From Candidatus Hydrogenedentota bacterium (GTDB lineage: Bacteria; Hydrogenedentota; Hydrogenedentia; Hydrogenedentales; JAEUWI01): DNA of 64,000 nt. Positions 53,594 to 64,000 of the stretch are shown one piece after another. Within the stretch, counting starts at the first letter, position 1; each line of letters begins with the position of its first letter. The DNA is taken from positions 160,001-224,000 of the forward strand of contig JAXMOL010000002.1 of NCBI GenBank assembly GCA_034669905.1, written 5' to 3'. The notes under the pieces are model-generated. The model was not told the origin of the DNA, searched no databases, and saw only the letters and a program-made list of their open reading frames with translations. The position numbers and the translations under genes were made by a program.

Positions 53594-54025
53594 TTATTCA
53601 CCAATCGGGTTGCTGGTCGCGTCGGCATCGGCGCCGTCCGCGTAGCGAATCACCCCGCTGGAGTCGGTGAAGAAGCCTTTACCACCGGTCGTGCCATAAG
53701 CCGCAGCGTTGGCGTTGGCCGTGAAGGCGTTGGCGTCACCGCCGAGTACGAAGTTGTAGCCACTCTTCGTGCCACCCCAGTTACCATCGAGGAAGGAGGG
53801 GGTTGCGCCGGTCAGGTCCGCGAAGTCGGCGGTGTAGGCGTAGTTGGCGGCGTGGTAGGCCACTTCGGCACCCACGATAGTGCGCAGGTTACCAATGGCA
53901 CTGGACTCATTGGACTGCATCCGCGAACGGAGCAGGTTGGGAATGGCGATAGCCGCAATGATAGCGATAATGGCCACAACAATCATCAATTCAATCAACG
54001 TGAAACCTTTGTTAGCTTTTTTCAT
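53594..54025 (-). CDS. pilA: type IV major pilin
   Basis: MKKANKG|FTLIELMIVVAIIAIIAAIAIPN class III signal; monocistronic with AGGAGG RBS, sigma54 promoter and terminator. Confidence 0.9.
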   Translation of the reverse strand: MKKANKGFTLIELMIVVAIIAIIAAIAIPNLLRSRMQSNESSAIGNLRTIVGAEVAYHAANYAYTADFADLTGATPSFLDGNWGGTKSGYNFVLGGDANAFTANANAAAYGTTGGKGFFTDSSGVIRYADGADADATSNPIGE

Positions 54026-58298: not shown

Positions 58299-58892
58299 AT
58301 GAGCGAATACGTCCCACGCATTCTCGCCTTCGCCGGCAGCACCCGTAGCGATTCCTACAATAAGAAGCTGGCCGCCGCCGCGGCAGAGGCCGCCCGGGCT
58401 GCCGGAGCCGACGTGACCCTCGTCGACCTTCGTGACTACCCCATGCCCTTATTTGATGAAGATCTTGAATCGGCAGAAGGGCTTCCCGAAAGTGCGGTCA
58501 AGCTACGGGAATTGTTCCTGCGTCATGACGGACTGATCATCGCCTCACCGGAATACAACGGTTCCCTGAGCGCGGTGTTGAAAAACACCATTGACTGGCT
58601 GAGCCGTCGCCAGGGCGATGAAACACCGCTCATCTGCTTCCGCGAAAAGGTGGCCTTACTCCTCGCCGCTTCCCCCGGTGGCCTCGGCGGCCTCCGTGCC
58701 TTGCGACACCTCAACACCATCCTCCACGGGATTCAGGTCATCGTGCTCCCCGAACAGAAGGCCATTCCTGCGGCCCACAAGGTCTTCGACGACACGGGCA
58801 TCGCCGATGCCAAAGTGGCGAAATCCGTCGCCGATCTCAGCACCCGGCTCGTTGAAATGACCACGCGCATCCACCAGAAAAACAACGGCTAA
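58299..58892 (+). CDS. NADPH-dependent FMN reductase (ChrR/YieF-like)
   Basis: GSTRSDSYN, SPEYNGSLSAVLKNTIDWLSR, ASPGGLGG. Confidence 0.93.
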   Translation: MSEYVPRILAFAGSTRSDSYNKKLAAAAAEAARAAGADVTLVDLRDYPMPLFDEDLESAEGLPESAVKLRELFLRHDGLIIASPEYNGSLSAVLKNTIDWLSRRQGDETPLICFREKVALLLAASPGGLGGLRALRHLNTILHGIQVIVLPEQKAIPAAHKVFDDTGIADAKVAKSVADLSTRLVEMTTRIHQKNNG

Positions 58893-58916
58893 AGTCCAAC
58901 CGCCCCCTGCCGATAA
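58889..58916 (+). promoter_or_regulatory. sigma28 promoter 1
   Basis: TAAA-N15-GCCGATAA; the -35 box overlaps the FMN reductase stop codon. Confidence 0.85.
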
Positions 58917-58922
58917 GTAAAG

Positions 58923-59104
58923 CACAGGCCAAGACACGGAAGTCGCGGCGACGAATTGACACGGAGGTCAACGGAGGTGGCGAAAGAGACTAGATGAACC
59001 GTCGGGTGTCATCCCAACACCAACGCGATCGACGTTTTGTCCCACAGTCTTTCCATCCATGAGAGGCGCCATAGCACACGCTGTTGTGGCGTTTTTCTAT
59101 TTTA
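58923..59104 (+). ncRNA. candidate sigma28-dependent sRNA 1 (antisense to flagellin 2 RBS, CsrA-type loops)
   Basis: Promoter, GAC-ACGGA-GTC hairpins, AUCCC hairpin, 26-bp complement of 62168-62196, terminator at 59066-59104. Confidence 0.75.
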
Positions 59105-59191: not shown

Positions 59192-59219
59192 CTAAAGGTT
59201 CTCGCTCCACCGCCGATAC
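59192..59219 (+). promoter_or_regulatory. sigma28 promoter 2
   Basis: TAAA-N15-GCCGATAC. Confidence 0.8.
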
Positions 59220-59225
59220 TCTAAT

Positions 59226-59393
59226 CACAAGGCGACGACACGGAGGTCAACGCCGGCACGACACGGACGTCATTGCTACTTATCCTGGATACATACTCAC
59301 AGGGTGGCCAATCCCACCACCTGCTATTGGGAGTGCCCCAGGGTCTTACCTCTGAAACGCGTTGCGGTCTACACTGCAACGCGTTTCAAATTT
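59226..59393 (+). ncRNA. candidate sigma28-dependent sRNA 2 (antisense to flagellin 3 RBS, CsrA-type loops)
   Basis: Two GAC-ACGGA(G/C)-GTC hairpins, AUCCC hairpin, CCCAGGGUCUUACCUCU seed, 13-bp perfect terminal stem at 59353-59388. Confidence 0.72.
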
Positions 59394-59425: not shown

Positions 59426-59453
59426 CTAAAGTTTTCTGCGGCACCGCCGATAC
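59426..59453 (+). promoter_or_regulatory. sigma28 promoter 3
   Basis: TAAA-N15-GCCGATAC. Confidence 0.8.
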
Positions 59454-59459
59454 CATCAT

Positions 59460-59590
59460 ATTAAGAGACAGATTTAACGTGTTCTTCAAGGAACGCTGGG
59501 GTGTCTATCCCGCACCGTATTCCAGCCGTTAATCTCTGCTTCTTACCTCCCCTGGTTGCGTCATGGCATTGAACCATGGCGCATCTTTTA
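59460..59590 (+). ncRNA. candidate sigma28-dependent sRNA 3
   Basis: AUCCC hairpin, UCUUACCUCC seed, terminator TGCGTCATGG/CCATGGCGCA-TCTTTTT. Confidence 0.68.
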
Positions 59591-60672: not shown

Positions 60673-60700
60673 CTAAAGTTGTCGCTCAAGTTGCCGATAA
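60673..60700 (+). promoter_or_regulatory. sigma28 promoter of the flagellin array
   Basis: TAAA-N15-GCCGATAA preceded by A/T tracts at about 60545-60672. Confidence 0.9.
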
Positions 60701-60706
60701 ATACTA

Positions 60707-61145
60707 CAGGTAAGCCGAAACAGGCCTTATTCAGGACAGTTTAAAAAAGTGAAATACGGAGTCCAGGGACGGGTTTCCGCGACATCATGGAGGATGGCGC
60801 ATTCAGCGCGGGGTATGCACCCGCACGACGGCCTCGAGGCCGACGACAACAATTGAATCACGTTGATCGAATACTTCGGTATGGATGAAGGCAGAGCAGG
60901 ATGCTCAACGGCTTCATCAAGAAGAAACGTCGCAGTTAACGAATTGCCTGAAGCACGGGACATGCCTCAGGGATAACGGAGACTGCTTTCGAAATCAATG
61001 GGACCAATCGATTTCACGTAGAAATCGGTTTCTGACGCACCGGACCATGGGACGGTAGCCGCCACACCGTGGTGGGTTACCCGGGATGGGACGTCAGAGG
61101 GAGCGCAAGGATGCGCTCTACCAACCACTCACGGAGGAATACATC
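60707..61145 (+). promoter_or_regulatory. long GGA-rich structured leader (multiple CsrA-type sites)
   Basis: About 19 GGA versus 2 TCC by hand count; GAGCA-GGA-TGCTC and GAGCGCA-AGGA-TGCGCTC hairpins. Confidence 0.7.
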
Positions 61146-61961
61146 ATGGGACTTCGAATCAACACCAATGTGTCTGCGCTCAACACGGCGCGGGTCTTAC
61201 GTAGCTCAACGCTGGACTTGAACAAGAGCCTGCAACGGCTCTCCAGCGGATTGCGTATCAACCGTGCGGCCGATGACGCCGCAGGCCTGGCCATCGCCGA
61301 GGGTTTTCGCTCGGTGGTACGCGGCACGCAGGTTGCCCAGCGCAATGCGCAGGACGGAATCAGCCTGGTGCAGACGGCGGAAGGCGCATTGAGTGAAACG
61401 ACCAACATACTGCAGCGTATTCGCGAGCTCGCCGTACAGGCAGCCAACGGAACGCAGAGTACGGCAAACCGCGTATCGCTGGATGCCGAAGTCGATCAAC
61501 TGTTAGCCCAAATCGATGATATCGCGTTTGACACGGAATTCAACGGTGTCCGGGTACTCAGCGGCGGCACTGTGCTGACGCTTCAAACCGGCGCTTTCCA
61601 GGGACAAAACCTGTCGATTGTGGTGGGTGCTGCGGGTCAGAACCAGATCGGTGTTTCGCCGGTTAACCTGCAAACCGCTGCCGGTGCCATCAGTGCACTC
61701 AGTACGGTAGACGGTGCCCTGCGCTCGGTGAACACGCTCCGGAGTAATCTGGGTGCCTTCCAGAACCGTCTGGAGTTCACCATCAGCACGCTCGCAATCC
61801 AGGAAGAAAACTCTTCCGCGTCCGAAAGCGCTATACGAGATGCCGACATCGCCCAGGAAACGATTCGCTTTACGCGGAATCAGATCCTGGTAAACGCCGG
61901 TACATCGATCCTGGCCCAGGCCAACATCGTGCCACAGACGGCACTGCAGTTGCTGGGTTAA
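61146..61961 (+). CDS. fliC: flagellin 1 (271 aa)
   Basis: MGLRINTNVSAL, RLSSGLRINRAADDAAGLAI, LGAFQNRLE, IRDADIA, QLLG. Confidence 0.97.
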   Translation: MGLRINTNVSALNTARVLRSSTLDLNKSLQRLSSGLRINRAADDAAGLAIAEGFRSVVRGTQVAQRNAQDGISLVQTAEGALSETTNILQRIRELAVQAANGTQSTANRVSLDAEVDQLLAQIDDIAFDTEFNGVRVLSGGTVLTLQTGAFQGQNLSIVVGAAGQNQIGVSPVNLQTAAGAISALSTVDGALRSVNTLRSNLGAFQNRLEFTISTLAIQEENSSASESAIRDADIAQETIRFTRNQILVNAGTSILAQANIVPQTALQLLG

Positions 61962-62189
61962 TACACGTCGACAACCAGGGCGGCCGAACCTCAAGGGATA
62001 CGAGGGGCCGGAAACGGAATTTATGGCCACCGGCCGCCCTGATAATCTTCAACGTAGAGAAAGGAGAACATAGGACTGCGAGTACTTAACGAGTCGCGTC
62101 GTTGAGCATTCGGTTTTTGTCAACTATCACGGAAGAATGAATAACAAAGGGATCGGGAATCCCTTTGGCCACTCATGGAGGAAAGTACT

Positions 62190-63008
62190 ATGGGACTTCG
62201 AATCAACACCAACGTGGCGTCGCTTAACTCGGCGCGTACCCTGAGCCGCTCTACGAGCGCGCTTAACAAATCGCTGGAACGTCTCTCCAGTGGTCTCCGC
62301 ATCAACCGCGCAGCCGATGACGCTGCCGGTCTGGCCATCGCCGAAGGATTTCGGTCGGTGGTGCGGGGCACCCAGGTCGCCCAGCGCAACGCACAAGATG
62401 GGGTCAGCCTCGTGCAAACCGCGGAAGGGGCGTTGAGTGAAACCACCAACATCCTGCAGCGGGTACGCGAACTGGCCGTACAGGCCGCGAACGGAACGCA
62501 GAGCTCTGAAAACCGTGCGGCCCTGAACACCGAAGTATCGCAGCTGCTCGCACAGATCGATGATATCGCCTTCGACACCGAATTCAACGGTGTGGCGGTA
62601 TTGAGCGGCAGCAGCACCCTCACCTTGCAAACCGGCGCCGAATCGGGTCAGACCCTGCAGATTGCTATCAGCAGTGGTGCGGGCCAGGCCGCCATCGGCG
62701 TGAGCACCGTCAACATTTCCACCTCGGCCGGCGCCGTCAGTGCCCTCAGCCAGGTGGACGTAGCCCTGCAGCGGGTCAATTCCCTCCGCAGTAACCTCGG
62801 TGCCATCCAGAATCGTCTCGAATTCACCATCAATACCCTGGCGATTCAGGAAGAAAACTCGGCCGCCTCAGAGAGTGCGATCCGGGATGCGGACATTGCC
62901 CGCGAAACCATTCAGTTTACGCGGAACCAGATTCTGGTCAGTGCCGGCACGTCGGTACTTGCCCAGTCCAATGTGGTTCCCCAGACGGCGTTGCAGCTTC
63001 TCGGCTAA
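62190..63008 (+). CDS. fliC: flagellin 2 (272 aa)
   Basis: Same flagellin motifs; GGAGG RBS. Confidence 0.97.
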   Translation: MGLRINTNVASLNSARTLSRSTSALNKSLERLSSGLRINRAADDAAGLAIAEGFRSVVRGTQVAQRNAQDGVSLVQTAEGALSETTNILQRVRELAVQAANGTQSSENRAALNTEVSQLLAQIDDIAFDTEFNGVAVLSGSSTLTLQTGAESGQTLQIAISSGAGQAAIGVSTVNISTSAGAVSALSQVDVALQRVNSLRSNLGAIQNRLEFTINTLAIQEENSAASESAIRDADIARETIQFTRNQILVSAGTSVLAQSNVVPQTALQLLG

Positions 63009-63227
63009 TTCGCCATCCATAGTTTAAACCGGTTGTAACGTGGTGGCTCCGGCCCTTCCTTTGGAGGGGTCGGAGCAGCACCGTAACTATACGGAAGGAG
63101 TGCATCAGTCGGCCGATTTGCCGTCCATTTACCCACCGCGGGGATAAATAGACGATGAGAAGGCCACGAAGAACATACACCGGGTTGGTTAGGGATACCC
63201 GACCGGGTGATCTTGGAGGTAAGATCC

Positions 63228-64000
63228 ATGGGATTACGTATAAATACGAACATCCCGGCTCTCAACACGAGCCGGGTGCTCGATCGTTCCAGCCGTGCCT
63301 TGAACCGCAGTCTGGAACGGTTGAGCAGTGGTCTCCGCATCAATCGCGCAGCCGATGATGCGGCAGGCCTCGCTATTGCCGAGGGCTTTCGCACCCAGGT
63401 GCGGGGCACCCAGGTGGCGCAACGCAATGCGCAGGATGGAATCAGTCTCGTACAGACGGCCGAAGGGGCGTTGAGCGAAACGACCAACATCCTGCAACGC
63501 ATTCGAGAACTCGCGATTCAGGCCGCCAACGGAACCCAGAGTTCCGCCAACCGCCAGTCACTCAACAACGAAGTGCAGCAGCTGATTGCCCAGGTGGAAG
63601 ACATCGCTTTGGACACTCGGTTTAATGGCATCAACGTGTTGAGCAGCAACCAGTCCATCACGCTCCAGACCGGAGCCAATCCGAGCCAATCCCTTCAGGT
63701 GACCATCGGCGGCGCACGCAGCACCGATCTGCGCGTAAGCGCCGTCAATATTTCGGCCGCGGCAGGCGCTATCAATGCCATCAGCCAGGTCGATATCGCG
63801 CTGGCAAGTGTGAACACCTTACGGAGCAGTCTCGGTGCCTTTCAGAACCGGTTAGAATTCACCATCAATACCCTGGCCATTCAGGAAGAGAATTCGGCGG
63901 CCGCCGAAAGTGCTATCCGGGATGCCGACATTGCCCGGGAAACGATTCAGTTTACACGGAATCAGATCCTCGTGAATGCCGGTGTCAGTGTATTGACCCA
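63228..64000 (+). CDS. fliC: flagellin 3, truncated by window end
   Basis: MGLRINTNIPALNTSR..RLSSGLRINRAADDAAG..LGAFQNRLEF; GGAGGT RBS; open to 64000. Confidence 0.95.
   Translation, partial: MGLRINTNIPALNTSRVLDRSSRALNRSLERLSSGLRINRAADDAAGLAIAEGFRTQVRGTQVAQRNAQDGISLVQTAEGALSETTNILQRIRELAIQAANGTQSSANRQSLNNEVQQLIAQVEDIALDTRFNGINVLSSNQSITLQTGANPSQSLQVTIGGARSTDLRVSAVNISAAAGAINAISQVDIALASVNTLRSSLGAFQNRLEFTINTLAIQEENSAAAESAIRDADIARETIQFTRNQILVNAGVSVLT

Follow-up and report, generated by a model that had tools for sequence, protein, structure and literature searches.

A structured flagellin mRNA leader with conserved GGA sites and neighboring candidate small RNA genes with sigma28-like promoters in Candidatus Hydrogenedentota

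The closest described counterparts of the locus reported here are the flagellin mRNA leaders of Bacillus subtilis hag and Campylobacter jejuni flaA. As described for hag (PMC7652899, PMC13443453, bioRxiv 10.1101/2021.05.06.443043), a flagellar sigma promoter is followed by a GGA hairpin and a second site at the Shine-Dalgarno (SD) sequence, fliW and csrA are adjacent, and CsrA carries N55; the present locus is alike in each of these respects. The C. jejuni flaA leader, as described in PMC4894983, offers further likenesses in its ANGGA loops, the presence of FliW in the organism, and GGA as the second codon, and it sets a precedent for mRNA-borne titration within the flagellar regulon. A third group, the CsrB/CsrC and RsmX/Y/Z RNAs (PMC7652899, PMC4005645; RF00018, RF00195), is similar in carrying many GGA, several of them in loops on covarying stems. 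In a review of 2020, the joint action of FliW and small RNAs on CsrA in any species was given as still to be determined (PMC7652899), and the organisms with FliW are described in a paper of 2026 as devoid of CsrB-type RNAs (PMC13407953).

The window, i.e. the whole stretch of 64,000 nt analyzed from a Candidatus Hydrogenedentota genome, includes three flagellin genes arranged in tandem on one unit of the + strand, flagellin 1 (61146..61961; 271 aa, starting at ATG 61146) being the first, followed by flagellin 2 (62190..63008) and flagellin 3 (63228..64000, extending beyond the window). The promoter of this cluster (60674..60700, +) reads TAAA (60674)-N15-GCCGATAA (60693-60700), which matches the sigma28 consensus, and its position sets the predicted transcription start near 60707. 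A sigma28 promoter likewise precedes the first flagellin in relatives, and none was detected by scanning the spacers between the flagellins. The initial annotation had placed a leader of about 440 nt between the sigma28 promoter and ATG 61146, and these limits were borne out. RNA contigs of relatives of about 91% likeness from four studies start at 60715, 60721, 60726, and 60730, i.e. 8-23 nt past the predicted start and far upstream of the ATG, and the segment 60335-60628 is covered by none of them; both are weak hints, the runs providing contigs alone, from relatives at shares of 0.05-0.17 and with no DNA control, in which depth, strand, exact ends, and processing are unreadable. Two of these contigs from relatives run from the leader into the third flagellin gene. 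Within the leader, neither a terminator-like site nor, on the + strand, an internal sigma70 promoter was found.

Several other observations were made around the cluster. The spacer 61962-62189 holds 10 GGA against 1 TCC, with a fold z of -3.2, and the spacer 63009-63227 holds 7 GGA against 5 TCC; both terminate in a GGGA-loop hairpin ahead of the SD. A FlaG-like ORF of 106 aa with GGA in its SD follows flagellin 3 just outside the window (contig C2:224167), and an ORF resembling type IV prepilins, with a methylation motif at its N terminus, is located at 53594-54025 (-). In one relative (G027, contig C20), no sigma28 promoter was found in the 1.5 kb preceding the first flagellin, although a GGA-rich leader is present.

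The analysis shows 60707..61145 (+) to be a genuine 5' leader of flagellin 1 that is structured and does not code for protein. Its folding z is -4.62, a value matched by 0/100 shuffles. Among nine genomes of the genus, 29 of 72 leader pairs covary with changes on both sides (0/500 shuffles), and 92.6% of the cells of the consensus pair versus 34-43% in slid controls, the structure having come from the same alignment that was used for this pairing and covariation test. A leader peptide was considered and rejected, because no + strand ORF of at least 15 aa is common to more than three of the nine genomes and most indels are not multiples of 3; the region thus encodes no peptide conserved in the genus. 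A search of the genome returned no further copy of the leader. Among known RNA families, the best match in Rfam was RsmY with 16.6 bits (E 1; cut-off 57), and CsrB gave no match at the locus.

Recounting of the leader agreed with the 19 GGA and 2 TCC noted before. The ANGGA form occurs nine times on the + strand versus zero on the opposite strand. The excess is modest, however, with a mean of 14.3 GGA after dinucleotide shuffling (p=0.049; p=0.002 after mononucleotide shuffling), yet only 0.4% of the 439-nt windows of the genome hold at least 19 GGA. The conservation of these GGA is bimodal: 10 GGA, forming eight sites, are invariant in 9/9 genus genomes, and the remaining nine are kept in at most 2/9. 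Several of the unconserved GGA are paired in the predicted fold. The statement that many GGA are in loops could not be upheld, as this is the case for just 5/19 in the predicted fold, one of these five being unconserved. Of the four hairpins proposed at the outset, those at 60894-60906 within GATGAAG/CTTCATC, 60947-60971, and 61101-61118 were retained, the first two being backed by covariation as helices 7 and 9. The fourth, GAAATC..ATGGGA..GATTTC, is not the conserved fold because its GATTTC pairs with a downstream GAAATC (helix 10), leaving CAATGGGAC as a linker. The loop at 60899, given as GGA, is actually AGGAY, since relatives have lost the A-U pair.

The eight conserved sites are all on the + strand. 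Site 1 (60764..60771) is a C-AGGGAC-G hexaloop of the CsrA type with GGA in 9/9 genomes on a covarying helix (helix 1), and site 2 (60783..60796) is a CAUC-AUGGAG-GAUG hexaloop, also of the CsrA type, with conserved GGA and an ATG that is not a start, being missing in relatives. Site 3 (60884..60919) is an AGGAU pentaloop, belonging to the lower affinity class of CsrA-type sites, in which 5/5 pairs of helix 7 change on both sides. The next three sites are devoid of the CsrA core A: site 4 (60947..60971) is a YGGGACA heptaloop on helix 9 (7/8 pairs covarying; GGA 9/9) that is complementary to (U)GUCCC, site 5 (60996..61004) is the linker CAAUGGGAC, invariant in 9/9, and site 6 (61047..61054) is AUGGGACG, invariant in 9/9, which repeats the AUGGGAC found at the flagellin start. 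Site 7 (61101..61118), a C-AAGGAU-G hexaloop in which GCGCANGGAYGCGC is invariant in 16 genomes, is the equivalent of BS1 of B. subtilis hag, and site 8 (61131..61138), ACGGAG with an invariant core over the Shine-Dalgarno GGAGG, is the equivalent of BS2. In addition, sequence comparison identified a conserved GCGGG-N7-CCCGC hairpin without GGA (60808..60824), of which the loop could possibly form a 3-bp pseudoknot with an upstream GCA (60799-60801), three pair types occurring at one of the pairs, and the motif A[GAU]UUGAA (60851..60857), which recurs across long leaders.

In the framework described for RsmE (Duss 2014, PMC4005645), the core is A(N)GGAX, best in a hexaloop, and the core A is sequence-specific. 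Five sites of the leader (60767, 60789, 60899, 61109, and the SD) fit this core, sites 1, 2, 7, and 8 belonging to the ANGGAX hexaloop class and site 3 to the AGGAX pentaloop class, and the CsrA load of the leader is therefore likely to be 2-3 dimers versus about nine for CsrB. The other three invariant sites (60958, 61001, and 61050), which had been overlooked as a group not fitting the CsrA core, keep GGGAC exactly.

A single csrA gene is present in the genome, overlapping fliW. L4, R44, and N55 are kept in 30/30 CsrA sequences examined, and CsrA also has a C-terminal extension; as described in PMC7829508, N55 binds FliW and R44 binds RNA. The features of a CsrA operator of the hag/flaA type are thus found side by side, namely the flagellar sigma promoter, the ANGGA hairpin plus GGA over the SD, and fliW/csrA with R44, N55, and the C-terminal extension, and the cognate fliW-csrA pair together with the conserved GGA loops supports the link of the leader to CsrA that had been postulated. 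By analogy with these systems, CsrA very probably represses flagellin 1. Among the 135 genomes of the phylum, csrA is present in 104 and fliW in 105. In one family (f11), 22 of 23 genomes are without csrA and fliW and 21 of 23 without the flagellin start pattern, and among 41 relatives all four flagellin-less genomes are without csrA and fliW. The loss of csrA together with flagellin argues against a global role of CsrA, and the proposal that the leader couples to global CsrA activity found no support in this distribution; the gene contents fit a CsrA that would be mainly flagellar rather than global in this phylum, the independent losses being few.

Elsewhere in the genome, a sigma28-like promoter (contig C34:6914, -) is followed by a short gene (MTVQCCVCKK...) of which the SD lies within a GAC-AAGGAG-GUC hairpin; it is conserved in relatives and likely another CsrA target. 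Sigma28-like promoters at C49:23176 (-) and C35:22025 (+) precede short ORFs that look FlgM-type by eye.

Upon scanning the genome for sigma28 promoters, four were found that lead into no protein gene, three of them in the window (58890, 59193, and 59427) and one on contig C63. The three in the window represent candidate small RNA genes in tandem, flanked by an FMN reductase gene and truA and located 1.1-1.8 kb upstream of the leader. Small RNA 1 (58890..59099, + with its promoter) consists of two GAC-ACGGAN-GUC hairpins, a UCCC loop, a seed (59037-59066), and a terminator; small RNA 2 (59193..59391, +) is of the same design with its seed at 59336-59357; and small RNA 4 (59427..59589, +; model match E 2.4e-7) has the UCCC loop and seed with no GGA hairpins, shares its terminator with truA, and is present at seven loci of the genus. 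The fourth, on contig C63 (C63:15885-16067), has UCCC in its P3 loop and again in the loop of its terminator. The predicted RNAs are about 135-185 nt in length and end at terminators; three of the four have two hairpins of the GAC-ANGGAN-GUC type, and all share the UCCC loop and, ahead of the terminator, a stretch rich in C and U. At the level of sequence, these neighbors show what is expected of trans-acting small RNAs, i.e. their own promoter and terminator, a conserved structure, and no conserved ORF. No match at E<=1 to the 4227 families of Rfam was obtained for six small RNA loci.

The two-hairpin pattern was detected in 93/135 genomes of the phylum (reversed control, 0), in 88/105 FliW-positive versus 5/30 FliW-negative genomes. 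In an alignment of 34 small RNAs, 13/20 consensus pairs covary, and the model built from this alignment finds the four members in the genome. The loops of the hairpins are ACGGA or AAGGA in 138/154, and RUCCC is present in 65/77 RNAs. The better two-site CsrA hairpins of this locus are found in separate, neighboring candidate sigma28 small RNA genes, which escaped the initial annotation. In two low-GC relatives (G033, G026), members without GGA hairpins are near-continuous antisense to one flagellin start, and a separate short two-hairpin RNA without UCCC is also present; the two functions appear to be split there.

The seeds were ranked against 20,904 candidate start regions of the genome. 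The seed of small RNA 1 gave flagellin 2 (RBS and start at about 62165-62197) as rank 1 of 20,904 with both seed windows, the other flagellins being at rank 253 or worse. Small RNAs 2 and 4 are both predicted to target the RBS and start of flagellin 3, which ranks 27 with the seed of small RNA 2 (rank 1 with a trimmed seed, trimmed seeds having been chosen post hoc) and 94 with that of small RNA 4. The C63 RNA showed no clear target (flagellin 2 at rank 76-292, flagellin 1 at rank 1392-5119). The predicted duplexes span the SD and AUG, with a cofold gain of -25.4 kcal/mol for small RNA 1 with flagellin 2 and -14.4 kcal/mol for small RNA 2 with flagellin 3.

The comparison was extended to 62 of 77 RNAs (37 genomes), namely those for which the seed could be located and two or more flagellin starts were available. 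In 15/19 genera, pairing is stronger with the flagellins of the own genome than with those from other genera (mean -3.4 kcal/mol; Wilcoxon p=0.004, kin not being independent), and in 4/19 it is no better; among seven further RNAs found by the model, four were in the top third, two were no better, and in one the seed was mis-picked. Complementarity to a particular RBS was observed for small RNAs 1 and 2, but not for the C63 copy, and it co-evolves across genera. GGGA upstream of the SD is found in 52/57 downstream flagellins versus 1/29 orphans, and GGA as second codon in 54/57 versus 2/29, both by heuristic classes chosen post hoc. Orphans across the order avoid GGGA close to the start; an orphan flagellin of this genome (contig C15:21889-22701, -) is preceded by a sigma28 promoter of its own and an 87-nt leader with two sites, and its second codon is GGU. 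Taking the predicted pairing as a whole, the small RNAs probably repress flagellins 2 and 3.

The reading that we favor on balance is that the sigma28 leader is subject to CsrA repression at the last hairpin and the SD, holds 2-3 dimers on its five fitting sites, and has three GGGAC sites that are predicted to serve the UCCC loops for docking or as decoys. As in B. subtilis and C. jejuni, from which this part is drawn, accumulating flagellin would bind FliW, leaving free CsrA to block the ribosome at sites 7-8, and upon flagellin export FliW would remove CsrA. Sites 1-3 would likely add one or two dimers, either as recruiters or as a modest local buffer. The small RNAs, under the same sigma factor, would cover the RBS and AUG of flagellin 2 or 3 by pairing, the case being less clear for flagellin 1, and CsrA on their 5' hairpins may protect these RNAs or bridge them to the message. 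The export checkpoint would in this way be extended to flagellins 2 and 3 and set the ratio of the flagellin paralogs. That FliW and the CsrA-binding small RNAs form one circuit, in which the leader is a landing pad or decoy for both and the checkpoint sets the filament composition, is a speculative extension that we doubt more than we trust.

The docking of small RNAs on the leader is a tentative element, judged somewhat short of probable. The invariant CAAUGGGAC at 60996 is complementary over 9 bp to the loop of the C63 RNA terminator, and in other genera (G017, G020, G030) loop-leader matches of 9-12 bp are kept with changed letters. The overall matching of loops to leaders is weak, with p=0.037 for the P3 loops and p=0.20 and p=0.34 for the terminator loops (18 RNAs from eight genera, a corrected set); docking through the terminator loop was therefore rejected as not significant. 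Moreover, the loops often find a match in the AUGGGAC start that equals or exceeds the one in the leader. With weak tests across genera and an equal match to AUGGGAC, docking and decoying are therefore put forward as a hypothesis.

The same equal match of loops to start codons favors an alternative in which CsrA binds each of the eight conserved sites with graded affinity, so that flagellin 1 is repressed in cis in a cooperative and switch-like manner, and the UCCC complementarity is a by-product of AUGGGAC targeting. Upstream sites of high affinity can recruit CsrA to a weak RBS site, as described in PMC4005645, and the CsrA of this lineage may favor other loops, since CsrA specificities are described as variable (PMC13443453). 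Sites 4-6, however, are without the core A and yet keep GGGAC exactly, the clearest CsrA hairpins of the lineage avoid GGGA, and the matches with changed letters in the three genera would not be expected; this alternative is considered doubtful.

Returning to the favored reading of CsrA repression with GGGAC docking sites, its setting was examined in the long leaders of other genomes. The pattern of last hairpin plus SD was found at 51 loci, every one before the same flagellin type (47 were read directly; at four, the start picked by the script was off by a few bases), with a sigma28 promoter 113-614 nt upstream in all 51. Of these records, 36 are titled Hydrogenedentota; the other 15, labeled Nitrospirales/Nitrospiraceae, Bathyarchaeia, uncultured, or metagenome, have the same flagellin type and promoter, and these are probably submitter labels. 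The leader of the first flagellin, measured in 31 genomes, is 206-614 nt in 30 and 113 nt in one; orphan flagellins have leaders of 75-91 nt with two sites. In the bodies of 40 non-redundant long leaders (the leader minus its last 45 nt), GGGA[CU] is enriched (157 versus 69), and ACGGA (30 versus 28.5) and AAGGA (26 versus 22) are not. Since AGGGA is likewise described as a good CsrA site (PMC4005645), the GGGA enrichment does not require small RNAs. The motif A[GAU]UUGAA is located 60-180 nt into 30/40 leaders, and AGTTGAA was observed 25 times versus 0.7 expected. Its sequence agrees with the RNase E core RN|WU described in PMC5222698, and it may be a cleavage or protein site; FlbT was considered as a reader of AUUGAA and rejected, its gene not being found in the 96% complete genome.

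The initial annotation had regarded the leader as a sponge of high capacity like CsrB, and in this form, whole or cleaved at A[GAU]UUGAA, it would set the free CsrA of the cell. The 19 GGA favor this proposal, as does the leader ranking first among 450-nt windows of the genome for GGA hairpins combined with the motif, the motif having been picked after seeing the leader. The 40 leaders hold 538 GGA versus 432 in shuffles, with 137 TCC, the weak RsmY match points the same way, weak sites are also used by RsmZ-type RNAs, RNase E/G and RNase Y are encoded in the genome, and the C. jejuni flaA leader is described as titrating CsrA (PMC4894983). The capacity, however, falls far short of such a role, with nine of the 19 GGA unconserved and several paired, five conserved A(N)GGA sites left, and, across the 40 non-redundant long leaders, 106 of 663 GGA in the form A(N)GGA on a 3-bp stem, the median being three per leader. 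Nor is a processed fragment indicated, as the leader is without a terminator and single RNA contigs cover the leader and continue into the genes. The loss of csrA along with flagellin and the existence of dedicated two-hairpin RNAs speak in the same direction. In B. subtilis, a high level of hag mRNA is described as leaving another CsrA task undisturbed (PMC6546359), which weakens the case for sponging by flagellin leaders. A cell-wide sponge is thus unlikely. That the leader acts as a modest CsrA buffer within the flagellar system is a matter on which we are nearly evenly divided, leaning slightly against.

A relation of the leader to the small RNAs by descent was also weighed, in which the message acquired a small-RNA-like or older flagellin control module by fusion, the first 150 nt of the leader being cut off as a separate RNA. 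Two GGA hairpins followed by A[GAU]UUGAA are found in the leader and in several small RNAs, the C63 RNA has ACAACAAUUGAAU in common with the leader, and the leader of one relative (G013) matches the small-RNA pattern. Membership of the leader in the small RNA family was nevertheless rejected, as the family model (R1) gives no match to it, and the shared motif is not kept in all C63-type RNAs; such a fusion is distinctly unlikely. A riboswitch or attenuator in which GGA is incidental, suggested by the strong fold and by the conserved non-GGA hairpin and possible pseudoknot in the 5' domain, is highly improbable given the absence of an Rfam match and of a terminator, the lengths of 113-614 nt with little common core across families, and a conserved part that consists of GGA loops.

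The favored reading, in which CsrA represses at the last hairpin and SD and the leader and small RNAs act on one flagellin unit, may finally be compared with the known systems. The hag leader is described as short with two sites, and the C. jejuni flaA leader as 45 nt in length with two sites for one dimer, acting without antagonist small RNAs (PMC4894983); the present leader is 445 nt long with eight conserved sites, and is accompanied by three flagellins and partner small RNAs. CsrB/CsrC and RsmX/Y/Z are described as free-standing, terminated, and driven by BarA-UvrY (PMC7652899, PMC4005645). The promoter of the Hydrogenedentota leader is of the sigma28 type, and the leader matches no Rfam family. 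With about five fitting sites, it is in the range of the small Rsm RNAs and far below CsrB, for which binding of about 18 CsrA subunits is described.

Individual parts of the system have precedents, but the combination was not found by searching the open literature, in which no paper on Hydrogenedentota small RNAs or long multi-site flagellin leaders came up; supplementary RNA-motif tables could hold these RNAs. The co-occurrence of a FliW-type CsrA with phylum-wide sigma28 RNAs bearing two ideal CsrA hairpins bears on the question of FliW and small RNAs acting together. The small RNAs also suggest, at the level of sequence, how flagellin paralogs lying in tandem on one unit might come to be expressed at different ratios, and the parts of both leader and small RNAs are short enough for reporters in B. 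subtilis or E. coli and for work in vitro.

With respect to the predicted pairing, Vibrio cholerae FlaX (PMC11879080), E. coli UhpU/MotR/FliX/FlgO (PMC10578931), and C. jejuni CjNC1/CjNC4 (PMC4626219) are also linked to sigma28 or flagellin and are described as pairing with flagellar mRNAs, FlaX repressing one flagellin paralog (PMC11879080) and CjNC1/4 being paralogs of each other (PMC4626219). An unpaired UCCC aimed at a G-rich RBS is likewise described for Staphylococcus aureus RsaE/RNAIII (PMC2790875), and for B. subtilis SR1-ahrC, CsrA is described as a matchmaker promoting the pairing of small RNA and mRNA (PMC6546359); these cases are from other phyla and, as described, neither flagellar nor of sigma28, so that the likeness is one of mechanism alone. 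In the descriptions of FlaX, UhpU/MotR/FliX/FlgO, and CjNC1/4, the partner is ProQ, Hfq, or no named chaperone, and not CsrA hairpins, whereas the small RNA paralogs of Hydrogenedentota are predicted to combine two CsrA-type hairpins with a seed for a different flagellin each.
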